Part shown: one piece after another, positions 30,001-33,000 of the stretch
Layout: each line of letters starts with the position of its first letter
Position numbering within the stretch: the stretch's first letter is position 1
DNA from: a virus
Lineage: Duplodnaviria; Heunggongvirae; Uroviricota; Caudoviricetes
Length of the DNA: 34,679 nt
IMG/VR virus record: IMGVR_UViG_2695420676_000013
Coordinates: 1-34,679 of that record
Reading direction: 5' to 3' (one strand)
Program-made: the position numbers

Positions 30001-33000
30001 CTTATCCCCCAGCAGGGTTGGCGAGCCCTCTTTTTCGACATCCGGCTCGAACGAGGAAAGTTCGTCATAGCAGACCACGTCCACGGATTTTTCACGGTAG
30101 TTTTTGGCGGCAGCGCCGCCCAGGCACCAGAAACCGACGCCCGATGAAAAGCGTTTCAGCGTGAGAGTATTGTCACGATGTTTACGACCCAGCCATGGGG
30201 AAAGGTCTTTCAGGCATGGCACGTTCCGAATCGTCGCCTCCACGTGAGACTTCATAAAATCTTCAGCGGCAGAATCCGTGGGCTGAAAAAGCAGACTGTT
30301 TCGGGATTTATGCTCAATAAAATACCCGACCACCCCCAGCAACATCTTTGTATAGCCAACACGGGCAGATTTAATCAGGTTAACCGTGCGAACCTGGTCG
30401 TTACCCATACAGTTCATAATGGCGATCTGGAATGGCAGCGTTTTCCATTCGCCCTCACCATATGAAGATTCTTTAGGCAGATAATAATTTTGATCAGCCC
30501 ATTCAACTGCCGTCATTGGTACAACCCTGACCAGAGGCTGCAGCGCAACCGAAACGGCAGCCATCATATTATTCAGTTGTTGCTCTGATATATTCATCGA
30601 GTAAATCCGGTAATTTATCCCCTGCCCGCGCACACTGATTTGCCCCCTTAGCAATAAGGGTTTTCAGATGGTCAAGATGGCGCGGTGTTAAATCAGGAAA
30701 CTGTCGCTGCATGGATAAAGGGATGGAATCAAGCGTACTGGATAACGCCATTGCCAGCTTACTGAGGGCAAAAATACAGAACCCGGTGTCAATAAGTTTT
30801 CCTTTTGACACCTCATTTTTTAACTGCTGTGTAACAGCCTGTTCTGCTGTCAGTTCCCATCTGGCAATAAGCAATTTCTCCTCATAGTCGTCTTCGCTAT
30901 CGCCATCAGGCACATCGTTTTTACTTCTCCTCAGATACGATATGTAAAAATCGCGCCAGGCATCCAGATCCAGTTGCCCTCGCTTATTCGATATCGGGGC
31001 ACCCGGCAATTTCTGCAATCTGCGAAGCTGGCGATCGGTCAGACTTAAATGCCTGGCAACTTCAGTCTGCGTAGCCACTCCTCACCTCGCAAAAACTCTC
31101 ACCTCACAATCACAACAAAACCGGTCATGTCCGGTTTACATGTCTGTTTTTTGTTCATGTCCGGTTCACAGAAGACCTGTTTTTATATTTTTCATATAGT
31201 TAACTTGAAGAGAAACCGGACATGGATCCCGGAAAATTTTCATAAATAGCGAAAACCCGCGAGGTCGCCGCCCCGTAACCTGTCGGATCGCCGGAAAGGA
31301 CCCACGAAAATGATAATAATTATCATCTACATGAGGTTTATCACGACATGTGTGTACGCCATCAAACCACGAGAAATAATCAATTATTACGCAGGTATCG
31401 TATTAATTGATCTGCATCAAATTAGCGTAAAAGCAACTTCAGATAATACAAATCAGCAACACTGAATACGGGGCAACATTATGTCATCAAAGAACAGAAC
31501 CCGCAGAACAACAACCCGCAACATCCGATTTCCAAACCAGATAATTGAACAAATTAACATCGCTCTTGACCTGAAAGGTTCAGGTAATTTTTCAGCGTGG
31601 GTTATTGAAGCCTGCAGAAGAAGATTAATTAATGAAAAATATTCTCAATTTGTACCCAACAAAGACAAACACGACCAGAGCACCTGTTCAGACAGGTTTA
31701 CTTAAACGACTTATATATGACACAAAAAGCGACCACTAAAGTCGCTTTTTCTTATGGTAACAGGCAATAACTCTCTCAGATATTTTTTAGCATTTTTTTG
31801 ACCGCGCGTTTCCGGACGTATTCTGTTCTCCTGTCCCTTTATATCGTCGGAATACCCGCCGCTCTTCAAATCCCATTCCCAACTCAGAATGTAGTCTGTT
31901 GACCGCTTGTTTTATTTCGGTCAGGTTCACCGGTGAAACCGGAGTCCGGCGCGCCTTACGCAAACACTCTGCTCGTTTCTGTGCCGCCACTTTTCTTTTC
32001 TGGTCATCACTTAGCTGTACCATCACTTTTGCCCATCGTTCAGCTGCTCTCCGGTACAGTCCTTTTTTCTCCAGACATTCTGCCACGTGATCATGTAGCA
32101 TAAGTGACCTCCGATTATCTACAGACTGCCATCCTGAATTTACCTTCCCTTAATGAAATAACAATAAAAAACAAACCACGCAAAAACAATAAAACAACAC
32201 ACAAAAAAACTAAATAATAAACAAAAATAATCACCTTATTTTATTATTTTTTGAGGGAGCAATTACTGAACAAAAAACGCTGACTATATACTCAAAACCA
32301 AACAACTATTCTGCCAATCAGGTATCATGGCAACACACGGAATTACCGTGTTTTTGCCTTCTCTGCCCATACAATACGGGCATATACTTCATTCTCTATT
32401 GTAATATTTCTATCCATGTGCCCCACTCCATTTACCTGTAAATAATATTCAAAATATTTATCACAGAAATCGTTTTTGGCCATGAACTGAGCACACTATA
32501 AAGTCCGGAACTGACTCTTTGTTAAATTACCTTAACGTTACCAGTAACACCTTCATAACAAAACATCACGGTATACACTGGGTACGGATATATTCCTGTG
32601 CTCCTTCCAGTTGCTTCTGCATTGCCATCAGCCGTTCTCTGAGGATGAAATAATCCCGTTCAGCGGTGTCTGCCAGTCGGGGGCCGGTTGCATTATCCAC
32701 GCCGGAGGTGCCGGTGGCTTCACGCACGGTACCGGAGCAGGTGGCGTTGATCCGCAGGCGCTTACGACCAGCGGCAACATCAGCACGCAGAGTTTCATTT
32801 TCAGCTCTCGCATCGGCTAATTCCCTCGAGTATCTGGCATCAAGTGCAGCGACATCACGCTGGCGTATCTGCATATCAGTAATTGTCGCGTTCGCCAGCT
32901 CCAGCTCACTGGCTTTTTTATCGCGCTGCTCTTTGTAGATGATGGCGTGATCACGGTAATGATTCAGCCCCAGACTAAGCGCACCACAGGCCACCAGCAG

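Follow-up and report, generated by a model that had tools for sequence, protein, structure and literature searches.

A pchA-type regulator cassette in the Rz-cos interval of a lambdoid prophage with effector genes, and a fast-changing T-rich tract in its upstream region

We describe a gene of the PerC family and the DNA in front of it, located in a 34,679-nt stretch of a virus of the Caudoviricetes (IMG/VR record IMGVR_UViG_2695420676_000013, positions 1 to 34,679), here called the window. The gene encodes an exact PchA, which is among the best-known regulators of enterohaemorrhagic Escherichia coli (EHEC), and both the gene and its regulatory region are already known. Very probably, the locus is a pchA-type copy of the PchABC group that forms a self-contained cassette in an effector-carrying lambdoid prophage, with the 464 bp in front of the gene as the pch control region. 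Within these 464 bp, a low-complexity tract changes faster than the rest of the known pch upstream region and is prone to repeats; it is not a new RNA gene. That the divergence between pchA, pchB, and pchC is concentrated in this T-rich tract is a modest but testable detail, apparently undescribed in the open literature. All coordinates refer to the window, and the locus was read as the late region of a lambdoid prophage on the minus strand. The elements of the cassette are as follows.

31787-32101, minus strand: pch coding sequence (CDS), a pchA-type allele (PchABC group, PerC family) of 104 amino acids, assigned by Pfam and by identity to Sakai PchA.
32102-32565, minus strand: pch upstream region (leader), 464 bp from the Rz stop codon to the pch ATG.
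32150-32235, minus strand: low-complexity tract with a degenerate 19-21-nt repeat inside a hypervariable zone of about 32141-32260, defined by composition, Tandem Repeats Finder, and divergence.
32108-32112, minus strand: Shine-Dalgarno (SD) sequence GGAGG, 6 nt before the ATG, read from the sequence.
31998-32013, minus strand: candidate anti-SD and DicF site within the CDS, composed of UAAGUGA (32013 to 32007) and ACCAGAA (32004 to 31998).
32305-32333, minus strand: promoter-like TTGCCA-17-AATAGT in a conserved block, matching the consensus at 9 of 12 positions and with the best position weight matrix (PWM) score in the leader; the 5' untranslated region (UTR) would be about 197 nt.
32495-32525, minus strand: promoter-like TTAACA-19-TATAGT in the most conserved leader block, with the second-best PWM score; the 5' UTR would be about 387 nt.
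32343-32483, minus strand: 46-codon open reading frame (ORF) in the leader, with no SD in front and no Pfam match.
32335-32351, extendable to 32329-32358: leader hairpin (inner stem of 6 bp, loop of 5 nt), terminator-like on the plus strand only.

The 104-aa product matches the PerC profile of Pfam (PF06069) with E = 3.8e-44 and 149.3 bits, for a cut-off of 22.6 bits. The match covers model positions 1-89 of 90, which is a full-length match above the curated threshold of the family. When the protein was compared with PchA, PchB, PchC, and PerC, as the first-pass annotation had advised, all 104 residues agreed with those of PchA (ECs_1091) from E. coli O157:H7 Sakai. PchB of Sakai differs by V6L and PchC by V6L and V58M, while PerC is about 47% identical. 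Length and near-identity to the three Sakai proteins place the product in the PchABC group. Comparison with the Sakai pchA locus over 941 nt shows two substitutions and, in a T-run, a length difference of one T. A megablast search with 31400-32700 returned 100% identical loci in O145, O111, and O26 strains; identical loci carry the RefSeq label "PerC family transcriptional regulator." A word-indexed protein search found 16 relatives, which served for context look-ups.

The gene order is lysozyme, Rz/Rz1, leader, pch, DUF3950 (convergent), cos, Nu1, and terminase, and the same order is found in the Sakai prophages Sp11 and Sp14 and in O26. The initial placement of a PerC-family gene between Rz and cos, convergent with a DUF3950 gene, is thus confirmed. 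This is also the position of PchABC, namely, in a lambdoid prophage, between Rz and cos/terminase, behind an upstream region of about 464 bp that the group has in common. The homology with a lambda-like phage ends at 31628 and restarts at 32588, and that phage has bor between these points; by its position, the pch cassette fills the classical lambda bor slot between Rz and cos. As is characteristic of phage morons, the cassette has a downstream terminator of its own (11-bp stem flanked by A5 and T5, 31724-31750).

Pch proteins are prophage-encoded PerC homologues which EHEC requires to express its locus of enterocyte effacement (LEE). Their genes usually reside on prophages with effectors of the type III secretion system, and Pch coordinates those effectors with the LEE (PMC3378721, PMC4456613). 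Pch binds to the promoter of LEE1/ler and to further virulence loci occupied by H-NS, nleG clusters among them, and relieves silencing by H-NS, StpA, and Hha. It activates LEE1 by displacement of H-NS, and Pch and Ler jointly reduce the H-NS occupancy of effector loci such as the nleG clusters (PMC4764244). The window copy should activate LEE1/ler in the same way, as published for the identical protein (PMC4764244, PMC4456613). Two NleG-family effector genes lie in the same prophage (6448-7098, plus strand; 8365-8844, minus strand). Hence, the earlier proposal that the gene ties the prophage to type III secretion and to its own effector cargo agrees with the gene content and with published work (PMC3378721, PMC4456613, PMC4764244). 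Relief of H-NS silencing by Pch would couple the prophage effectors to the secretion system. The prophage would then supply both the NleG effectors and the regulator that switches them on, which is textbook knowledge in the field.

On the plus strand, the tract consists of 66% A, 19% C, 13% T, and 2% G; read in the pch sense, it is rich in U and G and has hardly any C. No other 86-nt stretch of the 34.7-kb window is as rich in a single base (0.66, next best 0.52). The AT content is 67% in the leader and 79-82% in the tract, compared with about 49% in the window, and the GC content within the tract falls to 18%. Tandem Repeats Finder reports a period of 21 nt and 2.1 copies. The first-pass annotation had described about 460 bp of upstream DNA with an 85-bp purine- or A-rich tract at about 32150-32235. 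Position, length, and A-richness hold, but the tract is rich in A and C and not in purines.

To compare the locus, 105 copies with 72 unique haplotypes were assembled from Sakai and further complete genomes, from IMG/VR, and from contigs of metagenomes. Across 70 unique haplotypes, the mean pairwise difference is 0.13-0.25 over 32260-32141 and 0.00-0.04 in the CDS. Within the leader, it does not exceed 0.022 in the block 32520-32441 and is 0.012 at 32300-32281. Between Sakai pchA and pchB, the tract is 31% divergent, the CDS 0.3%, and the adjoining Rz end and 3' UTR 0%. The copies also differ in length. Extra perfect copies of the 19-nt unit TATTTTTGTTTGTTGTTTA occur in two IMG/VR loci (two in L044 and one in L076), and in L044, positions 4682-4760 hold 4.2 copies of the unit at 95% matching. 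Another copy (L023) has a 42-nt deletion within the tract. The T-run after TTTAG is T6 in 4 copies, T7 in 43, T8 in 48, and T9 in one. In the allele of L049, A-type and B-type segments are combined into a mosaic. Length polymorphism among close copies, the mark of a contingency locus, is therefore present in the T-run (T6-T9), in the 19-nt units, and in the 42-nt deletion; a PWM scan showed no strong promoter across the T-run, and the tract lies outside any conserved ORF. In every leader type, the sense strand of the tract contains 46-62% T and 2-10% C. No part of the cassette is under less constraint in sequence and length than the tract; for composition, this does not hold.

Two conserved leader blocks, at about -197 and -387 from the ATG, likely hold the promoters and regulator sites of pch. 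The upstream motif, TTAACA-19-TATAGT, is kept in the Escherichia albertii, A25, and L034 types. A weaker promoter-like site lies at 32164-32137, just downstream of the tract. With a start at 32333-32305 or 32525-32495, the tract would be part of a long 5' UTR, of which it would form an unstructured U-rich stretch; with a start at 32164-32137, it would be upstream promoter DNA. LrhA, Lrp/butyrate, LeuO, and NtrC are reported to act on pchA/pchB expression (PMC4456613, PMC13012123). Together with the small RNA (sRNA) DicF (PMC7769764), these regulators fit the complex regulatory leader that had been suggested from the sequence.

Translation is a further level of control. For pchA, an anti-SD within the CDS is reported to pair with the SD and so to block translation, which DicF releases (Melson and Kendall 2019, summarised in PMC7769764, PMC7873438, PMC9438474). 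In the window, UCACUUA in the spacer between SD and AUG is complementary to UAAGUGA at +89 to +95, and the two are paired in the long-range minimum free energy (MFE) fold. The neighbouring ACCAGAA is complementary to the 5' end of DicF from Sakai Sp4. The SD itself is conserved in all leader types, including a distant homologue (P0008 type). The elements present are suggestive of the published mechanism, by which pairing of the SD/AUG region with the in-CDS segment would gate pch translation and DicF would relieve it. DicF complementarity was assessed by a search for exact complements; duplexes of DicF and the mRNA from ViennaRNA duplexfold were implausibly long and were discarded. Rfam at gathering score found no dicF in the window. 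Hence, DicF would come from the early region of this prophage, outside the window, or from other prophages. Sakai Sp4 (L002) holds a DicF copy at 5733-5784 (minus strand, RF00039, 76.9 bits) and pchA at 23366-23680 (minus strand), so that one element encodes both the activating sRNA and the mRNA on which it acts.

Several observations weigh against parts of this interpretation. The complementarity to DicF is only 7 nt long in the exact-match test, and the pairing of SD and anti-SD seen in the long fold is missing from a shorter one. Promoter-like matches are no commoner in the region than in shuffled sequences (3 found, 4.9 expected). Searches of open papers found no mapped pchA start site, no H-NS or LrhA footprint, and no reporter data for the region, so that the positions of the promoters and the tract's role follow from the sequence only. 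Finally, the divergence of the tract and the tolerated 42-nt deletion and insertions of 19 and 38 nt fit a functionless spacer equally well. For the tract, we tentatively favour an action through composition: its AT-rich DNA may serve the H-NS family and the AT-preferring activators LrhA, Lrp, and LeuO. The comparison of copies shows the tract to be a degenerate, slippage-prone 19-21-nt repeat that varies freely in sequence and length with its composition retained. Silencing of the leader by H-NS, as first proposed, is plausible from the AT content. It is somewhat unlikely that the tract is a functionless, slippage-prone spacer, with pch expression dependent solely on the conserved blocks beside it and on the SD region. 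Such a spacer would account for the least conserved part of the locus, for the tolerance of T6-T9 and of the larger length changes, and for the lack of excess structure, and a T-rich ancestor would long stay T-rich without selection. However, the T-rich, C-poor composition and the strand asymmetry are kept in all types despite about 30% substitution, and in the distant P0008-type homologue, whose upstream DNA is unrelated, the stretch directly in front of the SD is likewise very rich in AT. In addition, pchA and pchB are reported to be differentially regulated (PMC4456613, citing Honda 2009), and the tract holds most of their differences.

Nearly all of the difference between the pchA, pchB, and pchC loci lies in the tract, which changes by repeat gain and loss; this makes the tract the obvious candidate for the reported unequal regulation. 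It might be a selected tuning element, in which gain and loss of units, slippage of the T-run, and shuffling of alleles between the several pch prophages within a cell set silencing or translation for each copy; we regard this as rather unlikely. If true, tuning would explain the unequal contribution of the near-identical PchA, PchB, and PchC to LEE expression as well as strain differences. In a sub-variant, the C-poor sense leader would be a poor substrate for Rho, and C-rich, G-poor antisense transcripts would be good ones. Quite improbable is the contingency-like form of this idea, in which changes in unit number and T-run act on spacing or protein occupancy and thereby set the level of pch, and hence of the LEE, for each paralogue and strain. 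The length polymorphism of T-run (T6-T9) and 19-nt unit, the mosaic allele of L049, and the T7 of the window where Sakai pchA has T8 argue for it, but 99 of the 105 leaders have nearly the same length (462-465 nt), and a placement of the T-run in a promoter spacer or a reading frame is only putative.

The leader also contains the 46-codon ORF and the hairpin, and both were evaluated as possible genes. The upstream region had been called non-coding; the gap of 464 bp exists, and it holds this ORF, which lacks the pattern of a conserved protein-coding gene. Of the 105 copies, 91 have the ORF intact, and the other 14 are truncated, frameshift-extended, or without ATG; for example, E. albertii-type copies stop after 31 codons, and L034 has CTG in place of ATG. 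Nearly all copies agree in the first 16 codons, where no synonymous changes are seen, and differences between the ORF variants alter the protein. This pattern indicates constraint on the DNA and not on the protein, and neither a kept frame and start nor a synonymous bias, as expected for a small-protein gene, was found. The invariant stretch adjoins the promoter-like TTAACA-19-TATAGT (32525-32495). A tblastn search of 50,697 phage records gave a single match, a pch-linked EDL933 fragment. The small-gene tables from Sakai ribosome profiling (Huecker 2017) have no entry at the ORF, although multi-mapping of the three near-identical copies may hide a signal. Thus, the ORF is probably not a conserved protein gene. 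That it is a translated small protein, or an upstream ORF that controls pch, e.g., by Rho shielding or coupling, is very improbable: it is intact in most copies, its start is invariant, and transcription from the putative promoter at 32525-32495 would begin a few nt upstream of its ATG, but the ORF lacks an SD and a Pfam match, has no homologue beyond the pch-linked EDL933 fragment and no ribosome-profiling entry, and shows the stop, frameshifts, and CTG start as well as the protein-altering variants and the lack of synonymous changes described above.

The hairpin that had been noted near 32330-32355 is present at 32335-32351, but it is weak and not kept among related copies. On the minus strand, the stem is followed by GUUGCCAUGAU without a U-run. 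On the plus strand, the sequence has the pattern of a terminator, and the segment folds better than shuffled sequences (z = -2.2). One stem position is changed without compensation in 44 of the 105 copies (pchB, pchC, E. albertii, and A25 types), so that neither conservation nor a U-run on the transcribed strand marks it as an intrinsic terminator; a reading of the plus-strand hairpin as sRNA or terminator was dropped on these uncompensated breaks. The sense leader from 32300 to 32102 (199 nt before the AUG) has an MFE of -27.6, compared with -30.4 in shuffles (z = +0.85), i.e., no excess folding. Neither excess stability nor compensatory change, which would indicate a structured cis-regulatory RNA, was found in the leader. 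Rfam 15 gave no match in the leader, neither in a search of 30500-34679 at E <= 1, where only a chance-level rimP match outside the leader was found, nor in the whole window at gathering score. The table of orphan sRNAs from Hfq cross-linking (Hfq-CRAC) in Sakai (Tree 2014) has no entries in the pchA, pchB, and pchC leaders, and identical multicopy sRNAs do appear in this table. An independent sRNA from the leader, e.g., an antisense RNA of about 100 nt on the plus strand that would begin at the promoter-like sequence of 32218-32247 and end with the hairpin and T5 at 32335-32358, is extremely improbable. A plus-strand promoter-like site (9 of 12) and a terminator-like hairpin do exist, and the z-score of that strand is in favour; however, the only site able to feed the hairpin belongs to the hypervariable tract and is absent from the pchB type. 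In that type, the plus-strand stem contains a C-A mismatch, and in the pchC and E. albertii types, it is broken, again uncompensated. With no Rfam match, no excess fold, no Hfq-bound entry, and neither hairpin nor promoter conserved, the small RNA suggested in the first-pass annotation was not borne out.

The 464-bp leader, which is conserved as a unit together with the gene, is found in 673 of 5426 complete E. coli genomes at 1878 places, with a median of 3 per genome, and it is full-length at all 1878 places. It is at least 99% identical in 601 records, with no annotation beneath. The Sakai equivalents are pchA = ECs_1091 (Sp4), pchB = ECs_2182 (Sp11), and pchC = ECs_2737 (Sp14). None of the 50,697 deposited phage records has the full pch cassette, compared with 12% of the complete E. 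coli genomes; matches to the cassette in these records are only two short unannotated fragments derived from EDL933.

Two further arrangements were seen among the collected loci. In four of them (L003-L006, homologue P0008, 78% identical), a divergent 104-aa PerC-family gene lies outside a phage context and adjoins an EspG fragment and IS110-family transposase genes. It shares with pchABC only about the last 35 nt of the leader (the SD region), and very AT-rich DNA precedes it as well. In the IMG/VR contig L069, a truncated tRNA-Tyr-like gene abuts the pch leader directly behind the putative -10 TATAGT (equivalent to about 32491). This tRNA-like stretch lies about 60-190 nt upstream of the leader homology, and another complete tRNA precedes the truncated one. 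The junction, by rearrangement or integration, removes Rz and the upstream promoter-like site.

The neighbours of the cassette are the following.

33369-33902: lysozyme gene; late region on the minus strand.
32566-33033, minus strand: Rz, the upstream neighbour of pch in the late operon (Pfam Phage_lysis, E = 8e-49).
32628-32813, minus strand: Rz1, embedded in Rz (Pfam Rz1, E = 1.7e-21).
31724-31750, both strands: hairpin with A5 and T5 at its sides, in the space separating pch from the DUF3950 gene (AAAAAGCGAC...GTCGCTTTTT; 11-bp stem in the fold).
31481-31705, plus strand: DUF3950 (YlcI/YnfO family) gene, convergent with pch (Pfam PF13132, E = 1.3e-17; RefSeq annotation of identical loci).
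31273 to 31262, minus strand: GGGCGGCGACCT, read from the sequence and taken to be cosN by the lambda consensus.
30569-31078: Nu1, followed by the large terminase subunit.

The hairpin at 31724-31750 is a single terminator common to both convergent genes. A consensus scan found no terminator-like site on the minus strand between Rz and pch; once the prophage is induced, transcription from its late promoter would therefore also cover pch. For virulence regulators acquired by horizontal transfer, induction by the SOS response has been reported (PMC6265319). Inside the lysis cassette, a terminator-like 15-bp hairpin with a T-rich run lies between the lysozyme gene and Rz (33247-33279, minus strand); the chance-level rimP-leader match of Rfam (E = 0.66) overlaps it on the plus strand.

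Elsewhere in the window, dusA (542-1579, minus strand) directly adjoins a tyrosine integrase gene (1668-2765, plus strand), and the prophage thus appears to occupy the dusA attachment site. Beyond the tail fibres, further cargo includes a methyltransferase-like ORF (3517-4185, plus strand). A 352-aa ORF at 7177-8235 (plus strand) has no Pfam or NCBIfam match. An IS009 match of Rfam (228 bits, E = 4e-56; 4283-4481, minus strand) lies within a tail-fibre-assembly ORF (4240-4824, minus strand).

The closest known systems are the Sakai loci themselves. PchA, PchB, and PchC have the same 104 aa, the same place downstream of Rz and upstream of cos/Nu1, an upstream region of 463-465 bp, the SD, and the terminator. 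The window leader is of the pchA type and not of the pchB/pchC type; it differs from the Sakai pchA leader by one substitution and one T (T7 here, T8 in Sakai), and a further substitution lies in the 3' UTR. The prophage is not that of Sakai pchA, as it lies beside dusA and carries NleG cargo. The SD/AUG segment, the in-CDS complement, and the adjacent DicF heptamer of the DicF-pchA system are all present and identical to Sakai pchA. This element comprises the last 15 nt or so of the leader and the CDS and involves neither the A-rich tract nor the leader hairpin.

PerC of enteropathogenic E. coli (EPEC), encoded on pMAR7, belongs to the same Pfam family, the identity of about 47% extending over residues 2-88, and activates LEE1/ler as Pch does (PMC4456613, PMC4764244). 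In contrast to pch, perC is the third gene of the PerA-driven perABC operon on the EPEC adherence factor (EAF) plasmid and lies 50 nt after perB, without a long leader or an A-rich tract. Loss of perC does not affect LEE expression in EPEC, whereas pch is essential for it in EHEC (PMC4764244). HnrS (EcOnc10-12) resembles Pch as a multicopy regulator from EHEC/EPEC prophages that opposes H-NS/Hha silencing of the LEE, but it is an sRNA that represses hha and not a protein (PMC13502914). It was considered as a resident of the pch slot and rejected, as in Sakai it maps to Sp9, Sp10, and Sp12, while pch is in Sp4, Sp11, and Sp14. Finally, bor of lambda and other morons between Rz and cos occupy the same slot, and pch is like them in affecting the host, in having its own terminator, and in being dispensable for phage growth. 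The two differ in that pch runs with the late operon and bor against it, and in that pch encodes a regulator and bor an outer-membrane lipoprotein.

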